Positions 4,530 to 29,763 of a DNA stretch of 64,000 nt are shown piece after piece. Position 1 is the stretch's first letter. Each line of letters starts with the position of its first letter. Origin of the DNA: a virus; the IMG/VR virus record IMGVR_UViG_3300035688_000002, positions 1-64,000 of that record; one strand, 5' to 3'. A program made the position numbers and the translations under genes. A model generated the notes under the pieces. It ran no database searches. It saw only the letters and a list, made by a program, of their open reading frames with translations, and was not told the origin of the DNA.

Positions 4530-4535
4530 GCTGAT

Positions 4536-5096: not shown

Positions 5097-5099
5097 TCT

Positions 5100-5846
5100 T
5101 TAAAATAGCTGGGGGTCATGAAGGTGCCTTTCACATTCACTCCTTATATCTGTCTCAGTAATATGATGGTGTTGCCAAGCCCATCTCCTCTCTAAGTTCT
5201 CCTTGCTTTGTCTGTCACGTTGATTCTTAATCCTCCTCTGCACTGCCATATCAGGGTCTGCCATCTGCCAATGAATTCCATCAAACCTTGTTTCTGAAAC
5301 CTGTATTTTGAGATTCTTCCGATAAGCGTGAAACCCCGGAACCCATTCAATTCCAACCTCAGGCTTTACAATGATTGGCTTCCTATACATAGCGTTTATG
5401 CCTCTGGTTCTATTTGGATCACCATGTCGACGTTGCCATATCGCTGGCGATGATGAGTCTAAGTCCTTATCATTAATGTGCCTATAAACCTGCCACATCC
5501 ACGCATAGAGAAGATTACCATCCGCCTGTCCCAGAGCTTCCCTCCATCCATCTCGGTTTCCCATTGGGAAAATAAGCTCATCAGCATCTGCATATATCAC
5601 CCAATCGCTCTTCAGACCCGAAACTGTCTTATTTATGTTCTCAGATTGTTGGAGACAGTTAAAGAGATTAGGATAGCGAAAATAATCAATTTTGACATTG
5701 GGATAGCGAGAGCAAATTTCGACCGTCTCATCATCCGTGTCAGCATCCACAATGACAAGAATCTCATTAGCAAATCTGTAATGACCAAGAAAAAATGGTG
5801 CTAAAAATGCCTCATTGTACCAAGCCGTAACAACAGTTATTTTCAC
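5100..5846 (-). CDS. glycosyltransferase, GT-A fold (family 2-like)
   Basis: YNE, DADTDD, WVIYADADE (DxD). Confidence 0.8.
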   Translation of the reverse strand: MKITVVTAWYNEAFLAPFFLGHYRFANEILVIVDADTDDETVEICSRYPNVKIDYFRYPNLFNCLQQSENINKTVSGLKSDWVIYADADELIFPMGNRDGWREALGQADGNLLYAWMWQVYRHINDKDLDSSSPAIWQRRHGDPNRTRGINAMYRKPIIVKPEVGIEWVPGFHAYRKNLKIQVSETRFDGIHWQMADPDMAVQRRIKNQRDRQSKENLERRWAWQHHHITETDIRSECERHLHDPQLF

Positions 5847-6781: not shown

Positions 6782-7401
6782 AGCAACCCCCGTTGTGACC
6801 TTGCTAGGTAAACTCTTCGGTCTCTTTCTCGTACTTTATTTGCCAGTTTATATGTCAGGTCTTTGTCCCGATGATGTTCAACACTTATATCTTCCATAAA
6901 GTGAAATCTCTCGATCTTCTGTGCAAACATTCCCATCTCCGTATCAGAACCATAGTGAATGTAATCAGGACAGAAAACCTGATAATTTGGAAACTGATTT
7001 ATGAAGGCCTTTCCCATCAGACCAAAGGCAAACGGCGTGTTTTTTGGAGTAGAGAGCGTATTGAAGCCAATAAGACCCAATTTGTCTGGAAACTCATTCT
7101 CTAACCTATTCACAGCCTGTTTTATAAAACCTTTGGGAAAACAGAGGTCGTCTGAAGCATAAAGTGCTGCATCTGAGACAAAGGGCATAGCTCGGTTCAT
7201 TGAAAAGACATAGTCTCTCCTATACAGATTGAAGAGCAGTCCTACATCCATTTTCGCTACTGTTTCCAACAGCTTTTCATTCCCATCGGCTATAATCAAC
7301 ACTGAGAGGTTGGCATAGCCGTTCTCTAACAGTGAGAGAATAGCTTGTTGGAGGCTCTCAATGCGAGCGTGTGATGCAATAACAGCAGTAACGTGTGTCA
7401 C
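6748..7401 (-). CDS. glycosyltransferase family 2-like
   Basis: IIADG, YASDD, Y.HYGSD.E, VEH. Confidence 0.7.
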   Translation of the reverse strand: MTHVTAVIASHARIESLQQAILSLLENGYANLSVLIIADGNEKLLETVAKMDVGLLFNLYRRDYVFSMNRAMPFVSDAALYASDDLCFPKGFIKQAVNRLENEFPDKLGLIGFNTLSTPKNTPFAFGLMGKAFINQFPNYQVFCPDYIHYGSDTEMGMFAQKIERFHFMEDISVEHHRDKDLTYKLANKVRERDRRVYLARSQRGLLWGRDFGRLEK

Positions 7402-8222
7402 TTAGCCTCCAATGCCCCACCGATTCCCCACAGTTTCTGTCTGATAGGCTCTATAGTCTCTGGGTGTTCGCCCGTATAAGACACGACACCCGATACGTTA
7501 AACACCTTTGCCCATTCTGGTTCTGCCTTTTCCCTACAAAATCTCTCCCATTCAGTAACCCCATAGCCTGTCTTCCTGAAATCCCCTCGCTCTACATAGT
7601 AACGGAGCTTCCAGAATTTCTTCTCTTTCGAGACTGCATGTCCATAGTGATGGAAAGTCACATCATTAAGATACATACGTGTTGGGCTGAGAGCGTGAGT
7701 CCATTCAGAAACTCCAGGAATTCCTACACGGTTGTGCGTTATGTGTGTCATCCCACCACAAAGCCGCCAGGCTGAAATCTCCCTTGGCCTGCTCCATGCC
7801 CCGCCTGTAATAATATGTTTGTCGTCCCTCCAAAAGTGAATACAATTGTAAGCTAGAGCAAGACAAGTCTGGGGGAGGCTTTTCATATGACTTGAAAGAC
7901 GCTTAATATTTTCTTCTGACCACATCTCATCAGCGTCTTGAAGTACACACCAAGAGTTAATATCTCTTGGCATGAGAGACAGATAAGCTCTTCTCTGAAT
8001 AACCTTATGATCTGTCTGTCCAGCCTCATTCCTAAAAGTCCCGCTAATAACCTGCACTTTGACTCCAATTCTTCTGGCTATCTCTGCCGTTCTGTCTGTA
8101 GATGCACCCCAAGGGGAACCATCCATGACAAAAATACGATCAGCACGGTCATAAACACTCCTAATAGCTGCGTCTATAAAAACTTCCTCATTGTAAGCAA
8201 TCATGCCCACATAAAGTTTCAT
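7398..8222 (-). CDS. glycosyltransferase family 2
   Basis: MIAYNEE, DGS...STDRT, DADE, HHYG. Confidence 0.85.
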   Translation of the reverse strand: MKLYVGMIAYNEEVFIDAAIRSVYDRADRIFVMDGSPWGASTDRTAEIARRIGVKVQVISGTFRNEAGQTDHKVIQRRAYLSLMPRDINSWCVLQDADEMWSEENIKRLSSHMKSLPQTCLALAYNCIHFWRDDKHIITGGAWSRPREISAWRLCGGMTHITHNRVGIPGVSEWTHALSPTRMYLNDVTFHHYGHAVSKEKKFWKLRYYVERGDFRKTGYGVTEWERFCREKAEPEWAKVFNVSGVVSYTGEHPETIEPIRQKLWGIGGALEAK

Positions 8223-10987
8223 CTGTCTGCTTCCAACATCTCTTTTGCCACTTTCAACACCTGCTCTAAGTCCAAATGCGTCATACAGTCAGGAATTCTA
8301 ATATTCTCTTTTGCTCTGTGGGGACCAGAGCCAAGACACGGAGTAAAGAAATCACAATAATTCCTTTTGGGAAAGAGCGAACACTTTCCCTGTATTGGTC
8401 TCATTGACTTAAACATTTTTGAAAAGACACTTCCGTTTCTGTTGCTAAAGAGAGTCAGAACTGGAACATTCAATGCTCCTGCCAGATTAGACAAACCGCT
8501 ATCTGGTGAAACAACTAAGTCTGCTAATGAAACAAGAGCAGCAGCCTGCCGAAAAGTAAAAGAAGTGTCGTCTTCGAATGAGATTACGACACTATGTTGG
8601 TTGGCAAGTTTTATTCCAAGAGACCGAATAGGCTTCCAAACCTTGAGTTTGTTGCTCCCCTTCTCAACTATCAATATCCTCTTTTTCTTCTCCGGCATCT
8701 TCCACAGTCGCTCCGCCCACAATCTCTCTTCGTCCATTACAAAATAATCAGGCTTAAGATTGTCAGAATCTGAATGAATGAGATTGAGATAAATCTTAGT
8801 CCTCGGACTCTTTATCTCCCCGTATTTCTGCATCTCTATCTGTTCTATCCTGAATTCTACATCTGTGATATCAATCGAGTAGGAACAACCCTCAGGAACA
8901 GGATTATCATGAAGATAAATTGCATCTATGTTCGGATTGTTTGTTAAAACACACCGATATCGATCCGGCACTGCGTAAACTACTCTGCATTTCTTACCCA
9001 GAGCTTTTAACTCCCTTGCAATAACAGTCGAAAAGAGAATGTCTCCATAACCACCCATTCCCCTTTTGATTAATACTGTAACACGCCTTTCCTTCTTTAG
9101 AGAGTCTTGGATATCAGAAATAGGCATTCCCCCATGCCACTCAGGGCCTAACTTAGAAAGCTGCTGTCTTTCATGGGGATCAATTCCCCATATCTCACGA
9201 TAGAGTGCCACATTCTTATTCCAATTCTCAATGTGTTTCTTGCCTTCTTCCCGATTCGATTTTACAACTCCACCCAAAGCATGATAGTAAATAGCTCCAT
9301 AATCTTGGACAAACTGCCCCCTCGCAAGTCTTATTCGCAGCGTGTAATCATTGTCTTCGATGTAACGAGGTTTGAAACGCTCATTAAAGAATCCTACTTT
9401 CTCAATACACTCTCTCGAAAAGACCGTACAAGAGTAGGAACCAGCAGGAATATCAGCTATAACTGCTACATCATGAGACTGGGGTTTGGTGCTATTGATA
9501 TCCCAAGGTGCTATCCGCTCCATGGGTGTAGCTGTTATCCCAAAGGCTTTTATCTTCTCGGCAGTTTCCATGAGTCTATTTATCGTATCATATCGGAGAA
9601 CTAGATCATTGTTCAAAAGGACAAGTTTGTCATAGTCTCCCTCCATGAATTTCTTCATAGCTATGTTTTGAGCCTCTGCCACACTGGTTTTCTTTGAGAC
9701 AAAGCTGATTCTCTGTTTTTTAAGCCATTCTTGCGTCCCATCGGTTGACTCATTATCAACAACAAAAATCTCATAGTCATGGAAACTTTGTATCGAGGCC
9801 AAGGCTTTAGAAGTCATCTCTTTGAGATTATAAGTCAACATGGTCATGAGAAGTTTCCTCGGTTTTTTTAAATGACATTCCAAAGTCTCCATAATTTTCT
9901 CTGGAGACAATCGATCGAGACACTTAGCCACTCCTGCCTGCTCCTTCTCCTGATAACTTTTCCCCGGAAGACAATCCACAGTCCACCAACAGGGAGTTTC
10001 CTTCCTTCGCAAGGCACACGGAGCCTGAATGACGAGAGCTTTTTCATAATCTTCCGTGAAAATCTTCCCGTCTGTATTTCCAAAGACACCTATGATTCTC
10101 TTTTTAAGAGCCCCAGCAATGTGGAGGATTGCCGAGTCTACAGAAATTACTACATTACACTGGGAAACTAAGGCTGCCATCTCTCTAAAAGAATAATCAA
10201 ACTTTCCATTTTCTACCTTGTCTAGAATAATAACTCCGAGGCCCTTCTGTTTGATTCTCTCTATCACCTTGGGCATCCCTGGATAAATCTTGCATTTGCC
10301 AACCGAATGCAGACCGACTCCGATAAGTGGCCTGCTAAGTCCTTTTAGAACACTCTTAGCCCACTCCCTTTCTTCGTCACTTATTTCATAGACCGGAATT
10401 CTGTCAATAACAAACAGTCCGAGAGCTTTGAGGAGAATGTCAGAGCGATGCTCATAAGCCTCATTCTGTCCTCGAAGTTGCTTCTCTCTGAATTTGAGTT
10501 CTAGGTCATTGGCATTGATTCTGATGTCGAAGCCAGGAAGTTCAAAGAGTCCTTTTTCTTTGCGAGTGTGAGTAGCATCTACATAGGGATTCCCTCTCCA
10601 TACCGACTCAAATGCTTTCATCACTCCCACCTCAACTGTCACTTTATCTCCGTAAGCATCTTTATACGCCTTTGGGAAAATCGTTGATAAAAGGTGATCG
10701 CCGTATCTGTCCACCAGCCCCACATCTATCAAAACTCTCATGCTTCCTTTAGATGCAGAAATTTCCTGTGTAGCTTTATAAGCGTTCCAGAGCTCAGGAG
10801 AAAGAAAGAACTGACCGAAATCGAGATTGCCTATAATAGCCTCAAACCTTGCCCCTCCAGGAGGAATAACTATGGGCTCCATATTAGAATCATAGAAAAT
10901 CTCCGGAGCCTTTCCTCTATTTACAAACATTCTGCCATGTGGTGTTCTAAACACTGCTCCCTCTGTTTTTCTCAGCGGGTCTTCCAT
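8219..10987 (-). CDS. tri-domain glycosyltransferase GT9-GT2-GT9
   Basis: First GT9 (YGD.L, SVDSAILHIAGAL), central GT2 (TYN, VVDNESTDGT, LNND, EDND), second GT9 (GYGDIL, SPDSGL.NLAGAL.VP). Confidence 0.85.
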   Translation of the reverse strand: MEDPLRKTEGAVFRTPHGRMFVNRGKAPEIFYDSNMEPIVIPPGGARFEAIIGNLDFGQFFLSPELWNAYKATQEISASKGSMRVLIDVGLVDRYGDHLLSTIFPKAYKDAYGDKVTVEVGVMKAFESVWRGNPYVDATHTRKEKGLFELPGFDIRINANDLELKFREKQLRGQNEAYEHRSDILLKALGLFVIDRIPVYEISDEEREWAKSVLKGLSRPLIGVGLHSVGKCKIYPGMPKVIERIKQKGLGVIILDKVENGKFDYSFREMAALVSQCNVVISVDSAILHIAGALKKRIIGVFGNTDGKIFTEDYEKALVIQAPCALRRKETPCWWTVDCLPGKSYQEKEQAGVAKCLDRLSPEKIMETLECHLKKPRKLLMTMLTYNLKEMTSKALASIQSFHDYEIFVVDNESTDGTQEWLKKQRISFVSKKTSVAEAQNIAMKKFMEGDYDKLVLLNNDLVLRYDTINRLMETAEKIKAFGITATPMERIAPWDINSTKPQSHDVAVIADIPAGSYSCTVFSRECIEKVGFFNERFKPRYIEDNDYTLRIRLARGQFVQDYGAIYYHALGGVVKSNREEGKKHIENWNKNVALYREIWGIDPHERQQLSKLGPEWHGGMPISDIQDSLKKERRVTVLIKRGMGGYGDILFSTVIARELKALGKKCRVVYAVPDRYRCVLTNNPNIDAIYLHDNPVPEGCSYSIDITDVEFRIEQIEMQKYGEIKSPRTKIYLNLIHSDSDNLKPDYFVMDEERLWAERLWKMPEKKKRILIVEKGSNKLKVWKPIRSLGIKLANQHSVVISFEDDTSFTFRQAAALVSLADLVVSPDSGLSNLAGALNVPVLTLFSNRNGSVFSKMFKSMRPIQGKCSLFPKRNYCDFFTPCLGSGPHRAKENIRIPDCMTHLDLEQVLKVAKEMLEADR

Positions 10988-12051: not shown

Positions 12052-13245
12052 TCAGCTTGTAGTCAGCGTGACTGTTGCCAGTCCATCTTTGATGAGAGTG
12101 CCATAAGCGAATCTGCTCATCAAGCCTTTTCTCGGAATGAAATCGTCTGCGTCGATGATTTTTGGGGTCACATACAGCGGTATGTAGGGAGAGTAGAACC
12201 CCACAGCGTCTGTCCAATTTTCTCCCTTATAGCCCATTAAGAGCTTGTTTGCAACTGGGAAGAATGGGTCTTTGTAGACCTTGAATCTGTCATTCAAGGT
12301 TCCGACAAGATGCCTTCCGATTGTGTATTCGCCTGGCTGTCCGTTTTCGCTGGTCTTGAACTCTTCGAGCTTTTCGAGCCTGACAACTGCGTCCGGGTGG
12401 CCGATAATCCAGGTGGCATAATTGAATCTCTTTTTGAAAATGAGATTGCTGGCGTCGATGATGGCTTCATAGATTGTCTTTCTGTAGTCTTTTCTGTAAG
12501 TGGTTGTAGTGTCGCCCGCCAAGTAACCGTTAATATTCCAGTTCACGTTTCCAGCACCTGTTCCGAGGCCGGTTCCTGTCCCTGTAGCCCCTGCAAGCAG
12601 GCAAGCAATGATTAGACCGTCGATTTCTCGCACGATCTGGTCCTGCAACACTTTTGTCAACTCAGTCTCTGCTGAGAGCTTATGATAGGCCTGCAAGTCC
12701 TGCTCGAGTTCAACTGTCCATTTTGCCTTGAGCTTCTTCTCAATAGCAGTCACTGTCTCGTCAGTGATTTCCATGTCAATTTCTTTGACGGCCCCTGTCT
12801 CTGCGGATGTAGAATAATCCTTGTCTCTGATGTCTGCAACCGAGTCTCCTGCCGAACCTCCAGCTGGTGCATCATGGTATTTGAAATCGAGATAGAAGAT
12901 TTTGGCTGTAGGCTGGTCAATGGGCTGGACTGAGACCAAGTCCATTGCTATTAGCCTGTTAAAGATTTTCCTTACCAGGGGCATAGCGACTGTTGTGAAG
13001 GTGCTGATCTCTCCTGTTGTGGTTGTAGCTTCGAGAAGGTGCTTTGCTTCGTTTTCCAAAACCTTTGCGATGACGAAGTCACGGCTCATATCACCCGCCT
13101 CGATTTTCCCTGGGTCTAGGTCTGCTATAAGAGCGTTGTAGCTTTCAGCAAAGAATTTGACAGGGTCTTCCATGAGCATCTTCCGCTCTGGACTCTCTCT
13201 GTGACTAACAGCTAGATGTTCTGTCAGTTCCTCAAAAATGTTCAT
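12052..13245 (-). CDS. major capsid protein, T4 gp23-like
   Basis: LVSVQP...PT..IFYL, V.A..KKLKAKWT.EL.QDL.A.H, G.FY.PY.PL, F.P.KGL.SR.A are gp23-family motifs; likely processing site LLE72|A. Confidence 0.93.
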   Translation of the reverse strand: MNIFEELTEHLAVSHRESPERKMLMEDPVKFFAESYNALIADLDPGKIEAGDMSRDFVIAKVLENEAKHLLEATTTTGEISTFTTVAMPLVRKIFNRLIAMDLVSVQPIDQPTAKIFYLDFKYHDAPAGGSAGDSVADIRDKDYSTSAETGAVKEIDMEITDETVTAIEKKLKAKWTVELEQDLQAYHKLSAETELTKVLQDQIVREIDGLIIACLLAGATGTGTGLGTGAGNVNWNINGYLAGDTTTTYRKDYRKTIYEAIIDASNLIFKKRFNYATWIIGHPDAVVRLEKLEEFKTSENGQPGEYTIGRHLVGTLNDRFKVYKDPFFPVANKLLMGYKGENWTDAVGFYSPYIPLYVTPKIIDADDFIPRKGLMSRFAYGTLIKDGLATVTLTTS

Positions 13246-14510
13246 CTTTTCTCCTCCCTCTTGAGTTTTACACCCCCAAGAGCCTGCACTCTGCTGTGCA
13301 ATTTCTTAACTTCTTCCTCACCTGCACCCTCTATGAAAGTTTTGCCTCTACTTTTTCCCTTTAGGCCACCTGGACCAAGGTCTTTCTGAAGAGTCTCGAC
13401 AAACTCTTTGTAGCTCTTAACAGCCTCATCTACTTCTGCTTTGGTCTTTGGCTTCTGTTCGAGAATCTTGGTCTTCATCAACGCACCAAACTGAAAGTCA
13501 CTTGTCTTCTCTGTGAGATATGTCAGAACGGCCTCCTCGTTCCTCTCGTCCTCGATTTTCTTGACTTTGTCTTCCTTCTCTTTAAGGCTAGTGTTGACTA
13601 CTGTGAGTTTATCTTCCAGTTCGTCGATTTTCTCTCTCATGGCCAGCTTGTCTGTATCCTCTGCTGTCTGATCACCTGCTGGTTTCAGATACTCACCGGT
13701 AGTGAGAATCTCAGCGATGGCATTGATGGTTGTGAGATGGCGCTCGATCTCCGCGTCCTTTTCGTTCAGCTCAGTTTCCAGCTCGGTGACGCGCGTCTTC
13801 TGCTCTGTCAGCTGTTTCTGAAATTCGGCATCGAGGTCAGTTTTAACTTCCTCCCTCAACTCTTTCTTGAGAGCTTCTACGAGATCGGGATGATTTTTCT
13901 TGAGTTCCTCAAGATTCATAGTTTTAACCTCCGTTTCTGAATTCTGCCCTTCAGAGCTTTCTATGTACTGCTTTATTTGAGCAGTCAGCACTGATGGGTC
14001 AATGACAACATCAAAAGCATTAAACCTATACCCTTTTTCAATCTTTTCTACCTCACCAACGCCCGGCATAGTCAACGGAGCGCTTTTACCCTTGCCTCTT
14101 GAAGAGAGGCCAGGACGGCCACCCGCTCTAAGAATTTCCTTCAGGACGAGTCCTGGAGGAGTATTCAGCACCAGAAGATCAGCCATAAGCTGATTTTCTT
14201 TCCCCTTCAGAGGATTCCACTTAAGGTCAGTGACGAGGTGAGATGTCTCTTTGAGTTTGCCCTTGAATTCAGGATGATCAACCTCACAAAAGACTCTCTT
14301 CTCTTTGATAAGGGGCATCAGAGCTTGAACCGCATCATCCAATGTCTCACGGGGATAAATTCGCTTATTTTTGTTGACTGTGTCCGCTTCCTGAACGACA
14401 GCAGTTACGCGTATCCTAGGCTCACCCTTACCGGATGGGTCAGTGACTTCTTCAAAGTTAAGTTCCTCAAAGAAATCTTCACGTAACTCTTTCCAAAGAC
14501 TTTCAGCCAT
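13242..14510 (-). CDS. prohead core protease (T4 gp21-like) fused to a C-terminal coiled-coil scaffold
   Basis: N.N.RIYP, E.DHP, SH, G.SSRG.G, FD.V..PS followed by a Glu/Lys-rich coiled coil; directly upstream of the capsid gene. Confidence 0.9.
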   Translation of the reverse strand: MAESLWKELREDFFEELNFEEVTDPSGKGEPRIRVTAVVQEADTVNKNKRIYPRETLDDAVQALMPLIKEKRVFCEVDHPEFKGKLKETSHLVTDLKWNPLKGKENQLMADLLVLNTPPGLVLKEILRAGGRPGLSSRGKGKSAPLTMPGVGEVEKIEKGYRFNAFDVVIDPSVLTAQIKQYIESSEGQNSETEVKTMNLEELKKNHPDLVEALKKELREEVKTDLDAEFQKQLTEQKTRVTELETELNEKDAEIERHLTTINAIAEILTTGEYLKPAGDQTAEDTDKLAMREKIDELEDKLTVVNTSLKEKEDKVKKIEDERNEEAVLTYLTEKTSDFQFGALMKTKILEQKPKTKAEVDEAVKSYKEFVETLQKDLGPGGLKGKSRGKTFIEGAGEEEVKKLHSRVQALGGVKLKREEKR

Positions 14511-14579: not shown

Positions 14580-14855
14580 TTATGCCTTCCATTCATATGG
14601 CTTAGTAGCTCTGCGGTATCCGCTAGAATAAGCGTATTGCAGATTCTCAAGGAATTTCTCGCCATCTTTCGCACTGAATTTCTTGCCTCTCATTCCAGAA
14701 ATTCCTTTCTTAAGAACAAATGAGGCTAAGCCATTCATTCTGTCTTCAATGACCGAGATAGTCTTGCCATCCCAGCCAAATGCCATAATGACATATTCAT
14801 GACCGGTAGGCTCCACCATAAAGACATCTACTCTTTTCATGTTCCTGTCCACCAA
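14580..14855 (-). CDS. small protein coupled to the kinase-containing MuF-like gene (candidate immunity or partner protein)
   Basis: 91 aa; overlaps the 3' end of 14837..18037 by 19 nt. Confidence 0.6.
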   Translation of the reverse strand: MVDRNMKRVDVFMVEPTGHEYVIMAFGWDGKTISVIEDRMNGLASFVLKKGISGMRGKKFSAKDGEKFLENLQYAYSSGYRRATKPYEWKA

Positions 14856-17800
14856 GAGTCAAAGACATGATAGTCAAATCTCTTGGATTTCAAAATGTTC
14901 TTTACTCTAGCCCAAAAGTGTTTCATAGCAGAATCTTCAATGCCACACTTCTTTGCGAGAGTGTTTATCTCTTTCCTTCTCTCAACCAATCTTTCAACCC
15001 TTGCTAAGAGTTCTCTAGGAATAGGTTCGCCTCTGACAAGCTCAAATGGAAGACTCTGATACGCATCACTGACGTTCCTAAGAGCCATAGAATAGCCATT
15101 GTCTATTGCCCACAATCTTGCCTGCCCTTCACGCGCCTTTGTAAGAAGAACATTTGCGATGTGCCTGTCGGTGTTTCCAATTAGCATATCAAACAAAGCA
15201 ATTTTCTTTAACTGAAGCTTTGCCTCAACAGTGAGATCGGGAATCGCTCCCATTGCGCTCATGTGTTTCCACTCTTCGAGTGTCATAGCCTCGGCACCTA
15301 GGTGTTTCTGAACTGAGCCAGCACCCCTTGAACCTTCTTTGAGAGCAGTCTCAGGAACGATATTGTAGCCGAGTCTCTTATCCAACTCATAAGAGAAGGT
15401 CTCACGTCTTGCTGCGTCTGTTGATTCGTCAAATAAGTCTAAGCGTCCTCCCCATGTTGGATCCTCGCCCTTAATAGGCTTATAAATTCCGCGAGAGCCA
15501 TCTTCGAGTTCCACTGTTATTGATTCATTAAGTCCGCCTCTTGCAATAGGTGTTTCTCTAACGACCTTTGCATTTTCAAAAGTGAGAGGCAATTGCTCTG
15601 CTGGAGTGGGTTCAGTCAAAAGAACAGAATCTGCGGGTGTCGTCATGAATGTTCCTTGTGGCCTTTTTATTGTGACCATGTTCCCTTCTATCTTCGTCAC
15701 AGTTCCTACTCTAATATTGACTCCTACACACTCCCAGACGACCATCCCAAGCCTTATGCATGGGCCTTTAGCTCTGAACTGCTCCAAGAGGATTTTGCTC
15801 TTTAAGAATCGGAGTCCGGGCATTAGTTTAGCCATATGACTTTCCCTCTCTTCTTCAAGAGATTCAGCCTTTTTAGCAGGAAGTGTAAATTTTACCCACC
15901 AATGAGATTGTTTCTGGGTCAAAGGTCTTCCAGGGCGACGAAAAGTTGACCATCGCTCACCATGATCGATAATCTTAGCACCAGGGATCGCCCTTTGAAT
16001 CTTGAGTGCCTCCTTCTCAGAAGACCCTCCGTGTGAAAGAAAGAATTCTTTATGAGCAATGTAGATCTCTCCCTTTTTTTCGATTGTATTAAAAAGGAAT
16101 CCTTTTGACGCTAAAAGATTCTTTATTTTATCTGGAGAGGCGCCTGCTACTCCCATTACTCCCATTCTGCTATCAGCTCCCCACCTACCTGGTTTGTTGT
16201 GATGCTCACCACTTCCTGGCCCACCTTCTCCTATCACAGCCTTCTCTCCGCTCATTGGAGACAGAACAAAAATGAGAGGAACATAGAAAATGCTTTCGTC
16301 TCCCTTAGCCAACGCTTCCTCTGTTTCATAGTCACCCTTATGGACGGCGGCAATCCAAGAAGGAGGAATACGCCCTTTGACATAATAAGACCCCTTGGGA
16401 GCGTGTATATCTGCGATCATCTCCGTCTTCTTTGGCACTCTCACTTCAAAAACAATGATTTTTGGCTGCTCCCTTAGACTAAATTTCATTCGAAGTTCAT
16501 CACCGATAACCTTGCCCCATGACTTTGCATCAAAGAGTGTAGAACACATAAAAACTGAATTAGCCCTCTCCCCAGTATAGTAATAGTCAGGGAAATTCCG
16601 CTGCCCAAAACCACCAGGAACGCCACCAGGGACAATTCCATTCTTCTTTATGCTATTTACTGCCTCGGCTGTAGTGCTATGATAAAAGATTAAGGCTGTT
16701 CTGTTTCCCCATCTTCCGGGTTTATTATGATGCTGTCCGCTTCCAGGCCCGCCTTCCTCTATCACAGCCTCACCCCAGCCAATGGGACATTTCCAAACTT
16801 CTCTGACTAACTCAAGACCCCGATTCCTCAGTGCTTCTGCCCTCTTAACGACATCCCCTGAGCTCCAACGAGGAACAGCTCTCACATTATAAGACTGCTG
16901 AAGCTGAATAATCTCAGCATTGACAAGCTTCCTAGATGCTGCATACTGGGCAAGCTCATCTCCTGAAGATAAAGACATCTTTGCTCGAAGGAGATTCATC
17001 TCGTCAAAGAGATCAGAAAAGAGGCGCACGACATCAGATGAGACAGGCCCTCCTTCTTCAGTTGCCACTAAGCAAGAGGAACTCTCTAATCCTGTCCTTG
17101 ATACTCCTGTTTCTGGGGCTGCCCCAAACCCTCCAAATCCTCCTGGCTGTTCGGTGCCAAAGCCTGGGTTCACATAAGCAAGCGAGCAATAACAACGAGA
17201 AAGACAAACAGTGTCGCCTGCCCTTGGGACTGTTGGTAGAGTCGATCGGGTGTAGGGACTGCCTGCGTTTAATTCAATGCAATCATCACAGTGATCGGAT
17301 ATAGGATGCCCAAGCTGCCAATGAATGAGCTGTTGCTCAGGAGCACAAGCAACATAGCCATTCCAAAACTGTGCATCTAAGGATTTAGCATATTCCTGCG
17401 CTCTAACCGAAGCTGACAAGGAGGAAAAAACAGCTTCCTGTTTTCTTTGGGTTGAAGTCCCTACCTGAATGTTGGCAAGAAATCGCTGTAAGTATCGCTG
17501 CTCTGCTTGTTGGGCTGTTACTCCGAATTTCATATCGACGGTTGTCAGCCCCATATCTTTGTAATAGGGATTCCCCGTTCTCATTCCGCCATATCTGAAA
17601 GCCTGTTGGTAAGCATCAGTCCCAAAATCTTTGAAGCGCTCTGCTGCTGTTTTTATAGAAAGTCCTCCCTCACCCACAGCTTGCACTATATCCTGAATCT
17701 GAAGCTCAAAACCTTTTCGCAGCTTTTGATATCCTGAAAGGGATGCTCTATAGGCAGTTTTATCAAACCCCCCGACTGAGACAAAAGCCTGCGTGAACAT

Positions 17801-18037
17801 ATCTCGCTCTGGGTCTCCCACAAGCCCTGCCCCCATTAGGGATTTGCTTGACTCATACCAATACCAGTCTATTTCATCAAAGAGTTCTTCGATGAATGGG
17901 CCTTCGTCACTTTCCGCCTTGATTATCCCTTTTGCTAGAAGCCCCCGAAAGACCCTGAGAGCCTTTTCCTTAGAGTCATAGACACACGGGCCTTTCCCGA
18001 TATGCCACTTCCCATTGGAACACTGCCTTATTGGCAT
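14837..18037 (-). CDS. MuF-like minor head polyprotein with an ADP-ribosyltransferase-fold domain and a C-terminal HipA/PI3-PI4-kinase-like domain
   Basis: HCDDC...C..RC.C MuF-like motif; FYHST....SI.KNG (Tpt1/ART fold); GIYKP, RE..SY, VP.T, GSVQ, D.LIGN.DRH..N.L, AIDNG kinase motifs; two EGGPGSGxHHNKPGRWG motifs. Confidence 0.8.
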   Translation of the reverse strand: MPIRQCSNGKWHIGKGPCVYDSKEKALRVFRGLLAKGIIKAESDEGPFIEELFDEIDWYWYESSKSLMGAGLVGDPERDMFTQAFVSVGGFDKTAYRASLSGYQKLRKGFELQIQDIVQAVGEGGLSIKTAAERFKDFGTDAYQQAFRYGGMRTGNPYYKDMGLTTVDMKFGVTAQQAEQRYLQRFLANIQVGTSTQRKQEAVFSSLSASVRAQEYAKSLDAQFWNGYVACAPEQQLIHWQLGHPISDHCDDCIELNAGSPYTRSTLPTVPRAGDTVCLSRCYCSLAYVNPGFGTEQPGGFGGFGAAPETGVSRTGLESSSCLVATEEGGPVSSDVVRLFSDLFDEMNLLRAKMSLSSGDELAQYAASRKLVNAEIIQLQQSYNVRAVPRWSSGDVVKRAEALRNRGLELVREVWKCPIGWGEAVIEEGGPGSGQHHNKPGRWGNRTALIFYHSTTAEAVNSIKKNGIVPGGVPGGFGQRNFPDYYYTGERANSVFMCSTLFDAKSWGKVIGDELRMKFSLREQPKIIVFEVRVPKKTEMIADIHAPKGSYYVKGRIPPSWIAAVHKGDYETEEALAKGDESIFYVPLIFVLSPMSGEKAVIGEGGPGSGEHHNKPGRWGADSRMGVMGVAGASPDKIKNLLASKGFLFNTIEKKGEIYIAHKEFFLSHGGSSEKEALKIQRAIPGAKIIDHGERWSTFRRPGRPLTQKQSHWWVKFTLPAKKAESLEEERESHMAKLMPGLRFLKSKILLEQFRAKGPCIRLGMVVWECVGVNIRVGTVTKIEGNMVTIKRPQGTFMTTPADSVLLTEPTPAEQLPLTFENAKVVRETPIARGGLNESITVELEDGSRGIYKPIKGEDPTWGGRLDLFDESTDAARRETFSYELDKRLGYNIVPETALKEGSRGAGSVQKHLGAEAMTLEEWKHMSAMGAIPDLTVEAKLQLKKIALFDMLIGNTDRHIANVLLTKAREGQARLWAIDNGYSMALRNVSDAYQSLPFELVRGEPIPRELLARVERLVERRKEINTLAKKCGIEDSAMKHFWARVKNILKSKRFDYHVFDSWWTGT

Positions 18038-19663
18038 GATTCAAACTGACAGCGTGTCTGTTATATTTATCTCAGGGGTGTCCAAAGTGACTTAGCAGCC
18101 CACATAGAGGGTTTTACTCTCCATCTGGGATTCGCTGGAACGCTCTTAGGTCTCAATGCTCTGACTCTTGCCAATCTCTGATTCCACTTTTGAAGTGCTG
18201 CCTTAGCCCCTGCACTTCCGAACCTTTTTGCTCCAATAGCAGCTCCGGTAGCCTTCTTGACTATGCCCTTCTCGACTCTCTGATATTGTTTCTTATAGGC
18301 ACGGGCGCTTTTTGCCGCAAAGCGCCCAGAATAGGCCCAAAACCTTGGGCGGCCAGCTACCGGTGCCGCTTTGGCAGATACTGGAGCGCGCAAGATTCTC
18401 TCTCCATGACCAGGTGCACCCGCTCCCCCACCCCCTCCCCAGCGTCCGGGCTTATTGTGATGTTGCCCAGAACCAGGGCCTCCCTCGATGAACCCTCGAT
18501 AATCTCTAATAATGTTTGCTAATCTTTCTTCATAAGACATGAATTCCTCCTTACATACTCCCACCATGACCTCTGACTATATCTTTTACTTCCCCCCAAG
18601 AAGCACCGCCTTTTGATCGACCCAGGCGCCTATATGCTCGCATAGCTGAATCAACTGTGGCTTGGGGCTTCCCGCTCTGTTTGAGATAAAATTCGATAGA
18701 AAGTTTCTGACTGCGAGCTATGTGTCCCTTTGGATTTCTATGAACGTCTTGAGCTGCTCTAGTGGCAGCATCAGCAGATCGGATTTTCTGAAAAAGTGAA
18801 TTTAGCTCCGACTTGGGATAGGTTACATCGAGAGGACGGAGACTTTTGTCACTTCCACCCCCGCCTCCTCCCCATCTCCCTGGTTTATTATGGTGTTGAC
18901 CACTTCCTGGCCCTCCCTCTGTAAATCTCTCATAATCAATCACGATATTTGCCAGCTTTTCTCCATAGTCCATGAATTCCTCCTTGCCTGTCATTCTCAA
19001 TTTTCTCTGAAGAGACTTATATTGCCAGCTATCGAGACCGTGTTTGTGGCTGGTGTCCCACAAGAGGCTTATCTTTGCCTGACGATATCTTGCTGAATCA
19101 GTGCCATACTTTTTGGCAATCTTATCTATCTTCGAACCTGTTTCTTTTACCCATCCTGAGCGAGCTTCACTTCCACCTCCTCGCTTGCTAGTCCCTCCCG
19201 TTCCCCAACGGCCTGGCTTATTGTGATGCTGTCCGCTACCGAGACCCCCCTCAGCAATATCCTCGTGAGTTCTTTGTGTCTCGATACGGCTCAATAATCC
19301 TGCAAAAGTACTCCTTGTGTTAGCAAGCGGATAAAACCTGCGTGGCTCTTCTCTAGATGAGATAGACTTGAGAGTCTTATCAAGAGCTAACACCTGCCGA
19401 CGTAAATGGTCACCAGTTCTTATCTGATCAGCCCTTGAGATTGTCATCCCCAAATATGTTTTCTTTATCGCACCAAGGTCTTTCTTATCAAGATACGCAG
19501 TGTGCAACAGAACGTCACCTATGTCAGAAGGCAACCCTGCTATGTCGGTTGTCCCTATTCGTTTTCCTGCCCCATCCCCTTTCTCTGGTGCTTTCTCTGC
19601 TCCTCCGCCAGTACCCCACCTTCCGGGTTTATTATGGTGTTGGCCTGAACCTGGACCACCTTC
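16178..19663 (-). repeat. six dispersed in-frame copies of a 17-codon motif EGG(P/L)GSG(Q/E)HHNKPGRWG
   Basis: Copies at 16178-16228, 16706-16756, 18436-18486, 18869-18919, 19202-19252 and 19613-19663; peptides near-identical, codons differ. Confidence 0.95.
18067..18540 (-). CDS. basic putative internal head protein with one GGPGSG motif
   Basis: Likely start ATG 18540 (GGAGGAATTCATG) just after the upstream stop; Arg/Lys/Ala-rich. Confidence 0.75.
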   Translation of the reverse strand: MSYEERLANIIRDYRGFIEGGPGSGQHHNKPGRWGGGGGAGAPGHGERILRAPVSAKAAPVAGRPRFWAYSGRFAAKSARAYKKQYQRVEKGIVKKATGAAIGAKRFGSAGAKAALQKWNQRLARVRALRPKSVPANPRWRVKPSMWAAKSLWTPLR

Positions 19664-20377: not shown

Positions 20378-20512
20378 TTATCCTCCTCTTGGCAAAAGTT
20401 TTAGAATACCCTTGATTCTTATATTCTTCTCTTTTCTCCCGACAATCTTAACTTCTTTTTCAAGCTGGCTTTCTATTGGTGCTTTCCCTTTGAGAATTCC
20501 CTTGATATTCAT
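20378..20512 (-). CDS. 44-aa basic ORF missing from the ORF track (MNIKGILKGKAPIESQLEK...)
   Basis: ATG overlaps the upstream TGA (ATGA); its TAA abuts the next ATG; fills the gap exactly. Confidence 0.6.
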   Translation of the reverse strand: MNIKGILKGKAPIESQLEKEVKIVGRKEKNIRIKGILKLLPRGG

Positions 20513-21441
20513 TTCTCCAACCAGCCCTTTATTTTTCCCTTTCCTTCAAGGAATCCTTTAATCAACCTGTCCACATATTTATATACAATTGGCTGGGCCG
20601 CCCTGCCAAGCATAATCAAAGAACCACTAGCAGACATTACAACTATCCCCTCTCCTGCTTTTAAAGCAATTTCTGTTATCAAACCTTTGCCGATGATTAT
20701 CGCCGATGAAAAGCCTGCCTTCCTGCCTTCCAAAGCAAGCAGTCCACCACCTGAAATAAGGGATGATCCACCATGTTCTTCCCCTTCTTTTCTTACTCCG
20801 GATGCAGTTAAAGAGCCGCAACCGGAGATTATGACTGAATCATAAGCAGACTTTTTTCCTTCAGATATTATCAACCCACCAACTGAAGTTGCGAAAGAAT
20901 TCTTAGCACTCTTCCGACCATCGGCTGGAACCACCCCGCCGCCAGAAATAGCTGAACCATCCTTGCCGCCTTTTATCCCTTCGGATGCGAACTCCCCGCT
21001 CCCAGAGACAACCCCGATGCCAGAATGGAATTCAACCGCTGACCCAATAGCTGATAAAGAACCGCCTCCGGATATCGATGCCAATCCCGATGATTCTTTT
21101 TCCCCTATTGCTTCAAGATTCCCAGCACCAGAAATTAACTCTATTCCCTTCGCTTCTTTTCTGCCTATGCCGACGAGTTCACCCTTGCCCTGGATAACAA
21201 TATCGGCCTGGACGGCTTTTTGTCCGATTACAATCTGCTGTCCGTTGCCAGATATTGAGGTAATGCCCAACATTCCGGCAATGGCGAGAACCGTGAGCAA
21301 TCCCTTTCCTGATGTTAAGGCAGAGCCCTTTCCGCCTTTTTGGATAATATTAGCAAGCGACCCGTTTCCAGAAATTACGGCAGAGCCAGAATGTTCTTCT
21401 CCAACAGGCGCTGATTGACCAAAAAATATCTTTAATGACAT
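20509..21441 (-). CDS. Gly-rich repeat virion protein (about 20-aa G..xISGxGxL repeats)
   Basis: About a dozen imperfect ISG.G.L repeats. Confidence 0.7.
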   Translation of the reverse strand: MSLKIFFGQSAPVGEEHSGSAVISGNGSLANIIQKGGKGSALTSGKGLLTVLAIAGMLGITSISGNGQQIVIGQKAVQADIVIQGKGELVGIGRKEAKGIELISGAGNLEAIGEKESSGLASISGGGSLSAIGSAVEFHSGIGVVSGSGEFASEGIKGGKDGSAISGGGVVPADGRKSAKNSFATSVGGLIISEGKKSAYDSVIISGCGSLTASGVRKEGEEHGGSSLISGGGLLALEGRKAGFSSAIIIGKGLITEIALKAGEGIVVMSASGSLIMLGRAAQPIVYKYVDRLIKGFLEGKGKIKGWLEK

Positions 21442-24262: not shown

Positions 24263-25945
24263 TCAGTAATACTCAAATCTCCCACCGGAGAGAGCCGCTT
24301 TTACCGCTTTCTCCGTTTCTCTTACCAGTTTCGTCAGTCTCTCATCTGCTGACATTCTCATCAGTATAGAATCGAGTTCGCTCTCGGAAAGAGGCTTTCC
24401 ATCACCACCTCCAATAGCCCATGCCGTTTGCGGTTGTGGAGCTCCCTTCGACACGGGCGGAGTCTTCCCTGTTAGAGCAGGCCCTGGTGCAGTTTTAGGC
24501 ATTTTTTCTGGTTCAATCTCGGGTGATTTCCCTGGCTCAATGCCAGCCTGGGGGGCTGGTTTCTTTGCTGTAGGCTCTTGCATGCCTTTCATCATATCCA
24601 GAAGCTCGTCCGCTTCATTAGGAGACAGCCCCAACATCAATTTTCTGACTATCCATTCAATAGGGAGAGAAAGTCCCATTCCGCCATACAGAGTCACAAC
24701 TTCCGCTTTCAGCCTCTCGATAGTCCATTTGGCTTCTTCGTCGGGCGACCCTAACGCTGGGAATTTGAGCTTCCAGACAAAGGCTGTAGGATCGACACCG
24801 TTAATCATAAAGTTAAGTCTGTAAAGCTTCCTAAGACCCTGCGCAAGAGAATATCTGTGTCTTCTTACCACTCTCATAAAGGCAATGCCTTGCTGTTGCA
24901 GTGTGGCTTTGGCATTTACGTCTCTTTCATAACCCAGAAAAGCTTTTGGAACCTTTGTGGCACAAAAGAGCTTATTGTGGAAATGTTCCACATCCTCAAT
25001 TTGCCCCAAGTGTCTTTCTCCTCCAACTACCTCATAGTCAGAAGATGGTCTGTCTTTTCTGACTGGAACGTAAATGTCTTCAAGCGGCTGAAGCGGATCG
25101 AGTTCTGTCTTCAGCTTACCGTCGCTGGAAAAATAGAGACGCCTTTTATTCAAGAGCTTAACACGTCTTATGTATTTCAGGGCTTCTCTCTCACCCATAC
25201 CTGTAACATCGATTTTATGCTTGCCTCTCTGATTCGACCGAGCCACTCGGGTAACAACGACAGTGTCTTCGAGCAGCCTTTGGACTCTGAATGTCCTTCT
25301 CAATTTTCCAAACAGAGAGTAATCGACTCCATAGTCATCTTCTCCCACTTTAAAATGTATAATCTCCCACGGAGCAAACTGAGCTACGATGCTCAAGAAG
25401 TCTGCATCTCTTTGGATGTATGGGATGTCTGATTCTATGGAACCGTCTTTTTTGTAATTGATAAAGACCTCTGCAGGAGGGATGAATTTGATTTTGACAA
25501 TCTCGTTATCTGTAGAGCAAATCACTTCATAAAAGGCATCACCATATTTAATGACATTCCTTGACATGAACCACAGTCTGTCTTTGATTTGCAGCCTTTC
25601 ATCCAGTTCCTCAATGAGATTTGCCTCTTTGTCCAGTCCCTCTTTCTCAAACTCGACGTTGTAGGTTTCACTCATTTCGCCGCCTGCCGAAACGACAAAA
25701 TCTGCATGAAGATCGAGAGAAGAGGAAAGCTCAACAATGTCATCATCCATCTCGTCATAATCTTTGTATTTTTCGAGCCTTGCTGGCTTGAGCTCGAAGA
25801 GTTTAGATTTATCCCATGAATATTTGGGTCGCTCTGTTGTTATTCCAGGGAGATCACCTTCAGGCTCGCCTCCCTTTTTGAAGACTGAGGTGAGCCTTTT
25901 GATGAGACTTTTCTTTTCGGCTTCTGTCCCCGATGTGTCAGCCAT
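24263..25945 (-). CDS. portal protein (T4 gp20-like)
   Basis: LED..V..R..R...R....IDV, ED.YVP.R, L..IEDV..F..KL.....VP..FL motifs; lies between terminase and head genes. Confidence 0.88.
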   Translation of the reverse strand: MADTSGTEAEKKSLIKRLTSVFKKGGEPEGDLPGITTERPKYSWDKSKLFELKPARLEKYKDYDEMDDDIVELSSSLDLHADFVVSAGGEMSETYNVEFEKEGLDKEANLIEELDERLQIKDRLWFMSRNVIKYGDAFYEVICSTDNEIVKIKFIPPAEVFINYKKDGSIESDIPYIQRDADFLSIVAQFAPWEIIHFKVGEDDYGVDYSLFGKLRRTFRVQRLLEDTVVVTRVARSNQRGKHKIDVTGMGEREALKYIRRVKLLNKRRLYFSSDGKLKTELDPLQPLEDIYVPVRKDRPSSDYEVVGGERHLGQIEDVEHFHNKLFCATKVPKAFLGYERDVNAKATLQQQGIAFMRVVRRHRYSLAQGLRKLYRLNFMINGVDPTAFVWKLKFPALGSPDEEAKWTIERLKAEVVTLYGGMGLSLPIEWIVRKLMLGLSPNEADELLDMMKGMQEPTAKKPAPQAGIEPGKSPEIEPEKMPKTAPGPALTGKTPPVSKGAPQPQTAWAIGGGDGKPLSESELDSILMRMSADERLTKLVRETEKAVKAALSGGRFEYY

Positions 25946-27675: not shown

Positions 27676-29763
27676 TTACCATCCCTCCGTTATTTTCGCT
27701 CGAGGCTTTTTCTTGGCCTTGTCTTCTTCGTCCATTTCTTTCAACAGCTCATCGTCTGTCACCCCATCAAGGAAGTCTTCTTCATCCAGCTCTGCTTCTG
27801 TCTTTTTGTGGGCGGGACGATCAAGGAGCCAATCGCGTGTGCTCTTATCGAGCTCCTCCTTCTCTGACATGGGATGCTCCATCACTCCCTTTTGGACTTC
27901 GTCAACGATGCTTAAATCCATGTTGGTGATAGCATTCCAAACAGCGCCAGCTACTGCATCCGAAACATCTTTGCTTCCGTTTGGAGGGTGATTTACCTTT
28001 CCTGTCTTCTGATCTCTAATGAGCTGCCTGAGTTCACGAAAGAGAGGCTCATAGTAGTAACACTTAAAGCGTCCCTCATAGATAGTCTCTTTGAGGACAT
28101 TGTATTGGTCTGAGGTTCTGTCCACAGACAGATAGCCGACTATGTCTTCGCCAAAGCGCTTTTTGAGAAGCTGCTGTGAGTCGCGGGACTGAAACTGGTC
28201 ATAAGTGATTTTCATAAACCGAAAGCCACATTGATGAGCCAGATCGTGAACGAGCTGACGAACATCCTCTATCTGAATCTCTCCTTCAAGAGGCGGAATG
28301 ATTCTCATGATCAAATCTGCCACAATTACAGGCTGGACTTCCTGAACGACTTCTGCTCTCTCTCCTTCCCTCGTCCTCATCACTTCTTTTATAGAAGCTA
28401 TATGGCAGACTGCTATTCCACACGCATCGTTCGTCAGTCCCAGGTCTATGTGACAGAAACGAGGGGCTTGAGGATTAATCAGAGACTGAGGACCATACTT
28501 TTTCATATTCACTATCGGATTCATCAGTTTGCTGAGCTTCAAAGCTGAGGGAAGGTCAGTGGATACGATTCCATTGCCATAAATCGAACTGAAAGGCATT
28601 GGAATTTTTGTGTCGGCACACTCTCTGATCTTCTCGTCATTCGTCATAAATCGATTGAGAGAGCGAAGATTGATACCGATAAAGTCTCTTATTGCTCCTT
28701 CTAGGTCTTTCACAAAGTAGGGCTTTAGTTCTACAGGCACTGCAATGACTCTGCCTTTTTCTGTGAAAGTCTTAAGCTCTTCTTCACTTTGAATAAGATG
28801 AGGGGAAGACCAAGCATCCCCTACAAAGACATGGAATTTCTCTCCTGAGTAGCGATGCTGCGGCTTTGTTTCCCAAGAAGAGTGAATGATGACTACCGTG
28901 TTTGGGTCATTCTCAGCGATGATTTTCTCCAAGAAGTCATCGGGATACTTAGCAGAGGAGTTTAGAATCAGTATTCCTGGGACTCTGCCGTGTCTCTGAT
29001 AACGAGACTCCATTCTCCTCCACACTGCGTCATGGATTTTCTTAGCCTGATCCCACTCTCTCTCGGCAGGATTGTGAATCTTCTTAGAACCTACTGTTAC
29101 TGGAAAGAAGTTTGCCTCTTCTATGACTCCTCCAAAGAGATTCTCTCCAAGAGGGGCTAATTCTGACGAAGACCCCGGTGCCACTGAAATAGAACGCTGG
29201 GGGAAATACACCAGAGATTGAATGTCTTGCCTTCTTCGCATCCTCTCCGAGAACCAGGGAGATTCGTCAATCATGTCTCTCAGTTGCTCAAAGAGAACTC
29301 TCCTTGCGTGAGTTGCAGTAACAGCGAGATTCATGAAAGCGATTCTCGTCCCTAGGGCAAGACCATAATAGGCCTGTGGGTTTCTAAGGCAGCCTAGCTC
29401 ATAAAGGAGACGGGCGAGGATAATACAGGAAAGGAATGTCTTTCCCCAACCGATTGCCCCACCCAACACTACCCTCAGTGGTCTGGGATTTGCCTCCATT
29501 ATGTCAAGGAAGTCCTTCTTGAGGACATCCCACATTGAGGAGCCAATGTGCCCAAAATAGTATGGGTCACTTATCCATTGAGCACATGAGACTGGGTCTG
29601 TTGGATAGAAGGCATATTTTTCTTTGAGATAAAGGGAAGGTCTGAGATACTTGGCACTCTTGGTCTTAGAGAAGGCATCTATAAGTAGACTAAGAGCCTC
29701 TTCTTCGCTCTCAAAGCCTAGGGCTTTTAAGCTCTCTTTGTCAATGAAGGTCGCTTCGGTCAC
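27676..29763 (-). CDS. terL: terminase large subunit
   Basis: Walker A GAIGWGKT, Walker B GGVIEE, RNase H-like HIDLG...D, TYDQFQS, H...GSKDVSDA. Confidence 0.9.
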   Translation of the reverse strand: MTEATFIDKESLKALGFESEEEALSLLIDAFSKTKSAKYLRPSLYLKEKYAFYPTDPVSCAQWISDPYYFGHIGSSMWDVLKKDFLDIMEANPRPLRVVLGGAIGWGKTFLSCIILARLLYELGCLRNPQAYYGLALGTRIAFMNLAVTATHARRVLFEQLRDMIDESPWFSERMRRRQDIQSLVYFPQRSISVAPGSSSELAPLGENLFGGVIEEANFFPVTVGSKKIHNPAEREWDQAKKIHDAVWRRMESRYQRHGRVPGILILNSSAKYPDDFLEKIIAENDPNTVVIIHSSWETKPQHRYSGEKFHVFVGDAWSSPHLIQSEEELKTFTEKGRVIAVPVELKPYFVKDLEGAIRDFIGINLRSLNRFMTNDEKIRECADTKIPMPFSSIYGNGIVSTDLPSALKLSKLMNPIVNMKKYGPQSLINPQAPRFCHIDLGLTNDACGIAVCHIASIKEVMRTREGERAEVVQEVQPVIVADLIMRIIPPLEGEIQIEDVRQLVHDLAHQCGFRFMKITYDQFQSRDSQQLLKKRFGEDIVGYLSVDRTSDQYNVLKETIYEGRFKCYYYEPLFRELRQLIRDQKTGKVNHPPNGSKDVSDAVAGAVWNAITNMDLSIVDEVQKGVMEHPMSEKEELDKSTRDWLLDRPAHKKTEAELDEEDFLDGVTDDELLKEMDEEDKAKKKPRAKITEGW

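Follow-up and report, generated by a model that had tools for sequence, protein, structure and literature searches.

Outside T4, phage P1 and a few giant phages, cargo choice, loading and release are largely unknown for phage heads. A compact case is found in the first 64,000 nucleotides of the IMG/VR virus record IMGVR_UViG_3300035688_000002 (positions 1 to 64,000, hereafter the window), part of a complete phage genome of 100,802 bp. Its head region combines one head maturation protease of the Peptidase_S77 family, seven predicted products, six near-identical headers, an ADP-ribosyltransferase (ART)-like domain and a CtkA/PI4K-like kinase. The headers—glycine-rich peptides of 16 residues, here called tags—are distributed over three genes, each directly behind a glutamate and in front of a different protein module. 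We consider it likely that the head protease cuts before the Gly-Gly at the start of each tag and in this way releases tagged cargo.

Described systems of head cargo

In T4, the head protease gp21 cuts after Glu, whereby positions 8 and 10 of a 10-residue capsid targeting sequence (P3 and P1) are the determinants and LIE is a motif conforming to the logo (PMC9026906). The T4 leaders are 7–20 amino acids (aa) long (PMC9026906, PMC5694885). Both T4 and the window have a gp21-family protease, a gp23-type capsid protein and a gp20-type portal; in both, short leaders end in hydrophobic-x-Glu—here with 6 and 19 aa—and the cargo, IPI–III and Alt in the case of T4, comprises small basic proteins and an ART, in the window a candidate one (PMC9026906, PMC5694885). 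Delivery together with the DNA is assumed for the window by analogy. The conserved element of T4 is the leader, which is removed, whereas the element described here lies behind the cut and would stay on the mature protein. In addition, T4 encodes its cargo as separate genes, whereas the modules of the window are strung into polyproteins with internal sites. Similarity to IPI–III or Alt was found neither with Pfam and PHROG nor with tblastn, the latter for the open reading frame (ORF) of 375 aa only, the other small modules not being compared directly with T4.

The polyvalent proteins (Iyer, Burroughs, Anand, de Souza and Aravind 2017, PMC5512222) resemble the locus in having ART and kinase in one polypeptide, a location among head genes and a MuF-like module ahead. 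Processing and injection are predicted there, and processing by an in-built Zn-metallopeptidase (MPTase) domain is proposed. In the window, by contrast, no module matches an MPTase or any other peptidase family at E ≤ 1, and the junctions carry a conserved tag and a site matching the phage's own head protease. A keyword search for a junction tag or linker in the text of PMC5512222 gave nothing.

In phiKZ and SPN3US, an S77-related protease (gp175 and gp245, respectively) processes many inner-body and ejection proteins behind the Glu of S/A-x-E, and some of these proteins are ejected (PMC9026906, PMC5694885). The propeptides lost there are longer than 100 aa, and no shared post-cleavage tag is reported for those proteins. 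Encapsulins mark unrelated cargo for the interior of their HK97-fold shell by short, Gly-rich, disordered cargo-loading peptides at the C-terminus. The analogy to the tag would be one of function only, as the encapsulin peptides are C-terminal, have no link to a protease site and differ in sequence.

Six tags in three head-region genes

A degenerate DNA pattern for GGPGSG(Q/E)HHNKPG was searched with at most two mismatches and with the chance level taken from 100 shuffles. In the window, it matches exactly six times, each time on the minus strand (16188-16225, 16716-16753, 18446-18483, 18879-18916, 19212-19249 and 19623-19660), with none expected by chance, and the exact pattern has no match in the remaining 37 kb of the genome. 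With the preceding Glu, the consensus reads E↓GG(P/L)GSG(Q/E)HHNKPGRWG, where the arrow denotes the presumed cut. This agrees with a preliminary description of this DNA, which had placed six copies in three head genes (two, one and three):

14837..18037, minus strand: putative cargo polyprotein of 1066 aa, polyvalent, with modules A, B and C and two tags between them
18067..18540, minus strand: putative cargo gene of 157 aa, with the 19-aa leader MSYEERLANIIRDYRGFIE, a tag and a very basic protein of 138 aa
18551..19678, minus strand: putative cargo polyprotein of 375 aa, with the 6-aa leader MQTIIE and three tag-headed basic modules
16705..16756, minus strand: tag copy 1 with upstream Glu, AVIEE↓GGPGSGQHHNKPGRWG, junction of modules A and B
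16177..16228, minus strand: tag copy 2 with upstream Glu, AVIGE↓GGPGSGEHHNKPGRWG, junction of modules B and C
18435..18486, minus strand: tag copy 3 with upstream Glu, GFIE↓GGPGSGQHHNKPGRWG, 157-aa gene
19612..19663, minus strand: tag copy 4 with upstream Glu, MQTIIE↓GGPGSGQHHNKPGRWG, 375-aa gene
19201..19252, minus strand: tag copy 5 with upstream Glu, EDIAE↓GGLGSGQHHNKPGRWG, 375-aa gene
18868..18919, minus strand: tag copy 6 with upstream Glu, ERFTE↓GGPGSGQHHNKPGRWG, 375-aa gene

Over the six copies, 100 of 102 residues are identical, and the remaining two are a P>L and a Q>E change. In the DNA, almost all third codon positions differ between copies: they are 40% identical among identical residues, and four-fold degenerate sites are 32% identical, which is the level given by codon usage alone and, thus, saturation. 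Hence, the copies are old and are kept by strong purifying selection on the peptide and not on the DNA, just as had been proposed from the differing codons. A DNA-level repeat or recent gene conversion is thereby ruled out. The modules behind the tags had also been called unrelated; with the tags stripped, modules B to G indeed show no mutual similarity (BLASTP, all E > 1). The tag is the sole element common to all three genes.

The presumed cut site and the head module

All six tags are preceded by [I/F]-x-E—IEE, IGE, FIE, FTE, IAE and IIE, with I or F at position P3 and E at P1—and the contexts VIEE, VIGE, FIE, FTE, IAE and IIE of the preliminary description are found as given there. The cut rule of T4 gp21 is worded as (L/I)-x-E. 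A protease of this type, together with further T4-like head proteins, is encoded nearby:

27676-29763, minus strand: terminase
24263..25945, minus strand: portal of the T4 gp20 family (Portal_T4, 1.5e-37), upstream end of the head module
13242..14510, minus strand: head maturation protease, Peptidase_S77 (T4 gp21-type), domain at about residues 30-181, presumed cutter
12052..13245, minus strand: major capsid protein of the gp23 family (Gp23, 5.3e-57)

All genes of this module lie on the minus strand, in the order terminase, portal, eight ORFs of 77–310 aa, the 375-aa, 157-aa and 1066-aa genes, a 91-aa gene, protease and capsid protein. The gp21-type protease that had been named at 13242-14510 is recovered by Peptidase_S77 (PF03420) with 45.3 bits against a cut-off of 27, by a six-frame search with 46.6 bits, and by phrog_207 (head maturation protease) with 3.6e-31.

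The capsid protein also bears on the cleavage code of this phage. In an alignment including T4 gp23, T4 gp24 and two relatives described below (G052 and G056), its predicted maturation site HLLE(72)↓ATTTT aligns with LLRE↓STTT of T4 gp24, ALSE↓T of G052 and YLQE↓T of G056. [L/I/F]-x-E occurs six times in the 72-aa propeptide versus twice in the 325-aa mature part (8.3 vs 0.6 per 100 aa), and 12 times, including TFIE↓GAG, in the tail of the protease. The motifs of capsid protein, protease tail and tags fit a T4-like cleavage code, as far as can be told from sequence. The predicted site of the capsid protein comes without a tag; hence, the tag is not needed for cutting and represents a separate, cargo-specific header.

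The protease tail itself, the C-terminal ~230 aa (13242-13940), is a long, Glu/Lys-rich, scaffold-like coiled coil, and no separate scaffold gene lies between the protease and capsid genes. By analogy to T4 gp22, this tail is probably the scaffold and would be degraded likewise.

A widespread canonical tag

Other phages carry a canonical tag of 20 residues, GGxGSGNFGHxGRPGxxGGS. A DNA pattern for GSG(N/H)(F/Y)GH.GRPG detects at least 182 copies in at least 115 IMG/VR stretches, with up to nine per locus; all counts of records, copies and loci (L008-L122) for the canonical tag, here and below, are among the matches listed from these stretches. Conservation extends beyond the search pattern, with GG before and GGS after it in 175-177 of 177 copies, and the canonical N, F, H, R and P are kept in 156-177 of 177. 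At the variable positions, identity is 68% within records versus 45% after permutation. The copies lie near the N-terminus in small ORFs and internally in ORFs of up to 1893 aa, and the N-terminal ones follow short leaders and never start directly with Met-Gly-Gly.

The modules headed by canonical tags include ARTs, Zeta toxin, nucleases, NUDIX and topoisomerase IB. In 13 of 95 tagged proteins the tag follows a portal, and in others MuF domains or proteases; hence, proteins resident in the prohead often serve as carriers, with the tag at the start of the piece that would be released, which suggests that cargo is fused to such residents in these phages. The portal families matched by these tagged ORFs are Phage_portal_3 (11/95) and Phage_portal (2/95), and the head-protease families are DUF2213 and S78_2. 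Homologues of module A bear nine tags behind the carrier domain, which read E↓GG(P/A/V)GSG(N/H)(F/Y/W)(G/D)H.G(R/I)PG..GGS.

Compared with the canonical form, the window tag reads Q-HHNK-PGRWG instead of NFGHxGRPGxxGGS, and the trailing GGS is changed to G plus variable residues. Shared are the GG-x-GSG core, a His, the Pro-Gly, a trailing Gly, the position right after the presumed cut site and the types of module headed. In alignment A7, the window tag is in register with the canonical tags of G052 and G056, with a two-residue deletion that all six window copies have in common, and copy 1 aligns column by column with the canonical tags of G052, G056 and a further relative, L125. Judged from these alignments, the window tag is a derived local variant of the widespread canonical tag and not a canonical member. 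Searches with two DNA patterns and with profile-derived patterns did not find this variant elsewhere in IMG/VR, and it is likewise absent from the JGI metagenome contigs. The 55 metagenome stretches hit by a looser pattern, EGGPGSGxHH, were rejected, all of them being chance matches that lie out of frame in GC-rich DNA.

In the canonical tag there is one His, and the net charge is often neutral. AT-hook-like DNA binding via GRP was rejected on the ground of this neutrality. A general metal-binding role, which the preliminary description had considered for the tag, does not hold up either, as the His-His is private to this phage and the widespread form has one invariant His.

Literature searches with the strings of window tag and canonical tag returned only unrelated linkers, and the canonical tag is apparently undescribed. 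A tblastn search of the canonical tag against GenBank phages gave nothing, a blank that means little as the low-complexity filter probably masks the tag. A third header variant is seen in P0086, a polyvalent protein of 2582 aa, in which at least eight junctions read K↓GGPGSGRYPKGSG; between them lie three ART paralogues of module B as well as one PARP-like and one PI3/4-kinase-like domain.

Close relatives

The closest relative is L125, whose portal is 50.6% identical to that of the window. At a place corresponding to the A/B junction of the window, between a MuF-like domain and an ART domain with FFHGTT, it bears KITE↓GGPGSGNFGHAGRPGFVGGS, a tag of the canonical form. The L125 contig ends before the position of the protease. 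G052 and G056 encode an S77 protease, and in BLASTP matches to one or both of them the capsid protein is 45%, the portal 32% and the protease 30% identical. G052 has seven tags and G056 four, and all 11 follow [L/I/F]-[F/L]-E. The tagged genes of both are located between the MuF-like gene and the protease, and a tag follows the MuF-like module. The kinase of module C is a separate gene in these relatives, with its own leader and tag; hence, fusion and fission of modules occur at the tags.

L006, a distant relative found via its S77 protease, has no tags and a different layout. Its protease gene is preceded by an ORF of 1448 aa just upstream and one of 1079 aa before it (3373-7719 and 162-3401), both interrupted by intein-like inserts ending in VVHN(T/S).

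The residue before the tag and the head-protease family

Eight residues (K, D, L, N, R, A, E and H) are seen at the position before GG (P1) across 107 canonical records, but a given record hardly varies: of 137 within-record pairs, 124 agree at P1, against a maximum of 53 in 2000 permutations. The effect is weaker at P3 (37 of 137 pairs, permutation maximum 29), and P2 and P4 are near chance.

Protease families were typed in 50 longer records (G001-G050). Strong DUF2213 matches are present in 15 of the 16 D-type records and in none of the 34 others, and weak ones—a divergent branch—accompany the R-x-[L/A] types. S78 or S78_2 occurs only in K- or R-type records (five records), and ClpP-like proteases were seen in two records, one of D-type and one of E-type. 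S77 is found in none of these 50 (0/48 non-E); it is found in two of eight E-type records and in the window, and the remaining E-type records without S77 are mostly small fragments. The residue before GG, thus, follows the head-protease family, with E in S77 records, D in DUF2213 records and K or R in S78 records. None of the searched protease families was found in the N-type records or in most of the K- and R-type ones.

Self-cleavage at the tag is rejected, as P1 varies with the protease family. S77 appears only in E-type records, and the canonical tag also appears in phages with unrelated head proteases.

Modules of the putative cargo genes

The 1066-aa protein bears at least two effector-type domains, PARP/Tpt1-like and kinase, behind a MuF-like carrier, and its gene is placed between the portal and protease genes. 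It has 2060 homologues, mostly of module A. A sequence search of the PDB with this ORF was empty, and word-index homologue searches with the 375-aa ORF, the 1066-aa ORF and module B returned only the phage itself, the 375-aa ORF being without homologues at near lengths.

Module A (residues 1-428) is acidic and bears the cysteines HCxDC...CxxxCxC. The label 'MuF-like' given to it at first is not confirmed as a MuF assignment: Pfam Phage_Mu_F (PF04233) has no match at E ≤ 1, and none of 51 homologues match it at E ≤ 0.001. In an hhalign comparison of the module A alignment (A4) with P0104, a true MuF+kinase protein, the RA..ART.., W, CxxC and NCRC motifs align, with a probability of only 2%. The add-ons on module A homologues are MuF-style and include ARTs, PI3/4-kinase-like kinases, Zeta toxin and GNAT. 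These homologues align only from about residue 50; the extra N-terminal ~49 residues (17891-18037) end in GPFIE↓E, a possible protease site, and ATG 18037 is without a clear Shine-Dalgarno sequence.

Module B (residues 429-604) matches three paralogous domains of P0086, one of which passes the PARP cut-off with 34.5 bits and matches Tpt1 at a score under the cut-off. Those of its ESM Atlas neighbours that carry names are ARTs. By these sequence relations, module B is a candidate PARP/Tpt1-like ART. Its single-sequence AlphaFold2 model reaches a predicted local distance difference test (pLDDT) score of 34; hence, the evidence for the ART fold is transitive sequence evidence only.

A kinase domain with the motifs GNTDRHxxN and IDNG forms the end of module C (residues 605-1066). 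The module scores 25.6 bits against PF00454, for which the cut-off is 27.1, and its homologues score over the cut-off. The AlphaFold2 model has pLDDT values of 70-96 over residues ~210-450, the kinase domain, and Foldseek places PI4KII-alpha first (E 1.4e-10, probability 1.0), followed by Fam20 and H. pylori CtkA. According to the predicted model, this domain has the PI4K-II/Fam20/CtkA-like kinase fold.

All six tag-headed modules are basic (pI 9.1-12.0), and the four small ones are like internal proteins in size and charge. The 138-aa module of the 157-aa gene has a pI of 12.0 with 30 K+R, and the modules of the 375-aa protein are 137, 111 and 121 aa long with pI 9.6-10.6. The leaders of these two genes are short and dissimilar, with 19 and 6 aa. 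No Pfam or PHROG match was found for the small modules. A tblastn search of the 375-aa ORF against 50,697 GenBank phage records including T4 gave nothing, whereby the low-complexity filter probably masks the tag and the blank means little.

The true start of the 157-aa gene is ATG 18540, with AAGGAGG ahead of it. A string of 15 nucleotides with ribosome-binding site and ATG, AAGGAGGAATTCATG, lies ahead of this gene at 18540-18554 (minus strand) and is repeated in frame at 18959-18973 within the 375-aa gene, where it (ATG 18973) directly precedes the third module. The leaders behind the two copies, MSYEERLANIIRDYRGFIE and MDYGEKLANIVIDYERFTE, are paralogous. The sequence suggests that the third module may be a former separate gene, possibly still translated alone.

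Proposed cleavage and role of the tag

The reading that we consider likely runs as follows. The three genes would encode capsid cargo, whose products enter the prohead as polyproteins or as small proteins with short leaders. There, the S77 (gp21-type) protease would cut behind the Glu of each [I/F]-x-E and yield seven products: the acidic MuF-like carrier and six basic modules, all starting with GGPGSGQHHNKPGRWG—the ART-like enzyme, the PI4K/CtkA-like kinase and the four small basic proteins (pI 9.6-12). The released modules would then remain with the DNA inside the head and pass into the host on infection, in analogy to T4 Alt and IPI–III. That the preliminary description spoke of polyproteins cut inside the prohead is in keeping with the S77 protease, the [I/F]-x-E in six of six copies, the code of the capsid site, the sites of the relatives, the covariation of P1 and protease, and the effector-like or basic nature of the modules.

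As every module has its own tag copy and each genome one tag variant, a single shared reader of each module is indicated. Most likely, the tag would be read by one shared partner during or after cleavage, so that the module is retained or positioned in the head or leaves via portal and tail. We infer that such a role during or after cleavage is to be favored over pure prohead targeting, and that a plain spacer is unlikely.

Pure targeting would mean that the tag is a capsid-targeting signal, which before cleavage attaches to the inner capsid surface, to the portal or to the scaffold/protease core, comparable to the cargo-loading peptides in encapsulins, while cleavage only trims the leader and internal copies add avidity. 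Several observations would suit this explanation: the tag is all that the three genes have in common, their leaders are short and dissimilar (6 vs 19 aa), a single variant per genome is what one would expect with a single phage-encoded receptor, and the tag region is predicted to be disordered, as is usual for docking peptides. However, the targeting information of T4 lies upstream of the cut and is removed (PMC9026906), and in many phages the tag stands behind portal, MuF or protease domains that are already in the prohead, which makes targeting redundant. Moreover, the tag is found with at least four protease families and various portal families, so that a lineage-specific receptor must be assumed. 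Hence, we regard pure targeting as unlikely.

The tag could also be a flexible, Gly-rich spacer, that is, an extended prime-side element for the protease with no function after cleavage. Its richness in Gly, Pro and Ser, the low predicted order (pLDDT < 40) and the constant position directly behind the cut site, with further Gly runs thereafter, are what such a spacer would show. Yet 16 residues, with Q, H, H, N, K, R and W among them, have stayed invariant although the synonymous sites are saturated, and the canonical N, F, H, R and P persist in nearly all copies across very different phages, where a spacer would tolerate substitutions. As the predicted site of the capsid protein also does without such a sequence, a mere spacer is highly improbable. 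Least credible is an absence of proteolysis, with the repeats as a structural or regulatory motif of intact multidomain proteins that binds metal via His-His or DNA via K/R: cleavage is indeed deduced from sequence and the window variant does have His-His and K/R, but P1 and P3 are kept within a genome and change together with the protease family, N-terminal copies sit behind short leaders and never begin with Met-Gly-Gly, modules fuse and split exactly at the tags, and the canonical tag has one His and is often net neutral.

Some points weigh against release of tagged cargo by the head protease. Cleavage, packaging, ejection and the role of the tag are deduced from sequence features, homologies and covariation, and the partner of the tag from concerted conservation only. 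[L/I/F]-x-E is a short and common motif. In 19 of the 50 longer records none of the searched protease families was found, and G043, a complete E-type record, has a ClpP-like protease instead of S77. The link between P1 and protease family may be confounded by shared ancestry, as the D-type records may form one clade. Module A is a MuF-like carrier and not a Pfam MuF member, and entry of the polyprotein into the prohead is a guess. Lastly, the small proteins could depend on their variable leaders instead of the tag, as T4 cargo does on its capsid targeting sequence.

Beyond the window, release of tagged cargo may be part of a more general scheme, which we put forward tentatively and with clearly less confidence than the cleavage itself: the header would be a protease-independent cargo label of tailed phages, ahead of which each lineage sets its own protease site and which one reader recognizes on every released module. 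Such a reader might be the inner surface of the capsid, the channel of portal and tail, or the end of the DNA, and its task might be retention or export. With all six labels changed together, the phage of the window would in this scheme be an experiment of nature, whose reader would have changed too.

What is new here is that the window tag is a variant of a widespread canonical tag, present in at least 115 IMG/VR stretches, and that the residue preceding it follows the head-protease family. If confirmed, this would allow for predicting the cleavage specificities of poorly studied families (Asp for DUF2213, Lys/Arg for S78) and for recognizing injected effectors from sequence alone. It would also suggest a portable tag for loading foreign proteins into phage heads, and, if the cargo-label scheme is true, for delivery with many phages as well.

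Neighboring genes

Between the portal and the putative cargo genes, a Gly/Ser-rich protein of 310 aa with repeats of about 20 residues (..ISG.G.L..G.K..) is encoded at 20509-21441 (minus strand); no family match was found for it. Just downstream of the capsid gene region, at 8219-10987 (minus strand), lies the gene for a 922-aa protein with GT9 (heptosyltransferase-like) and GT2 glycosyltransferase domains.

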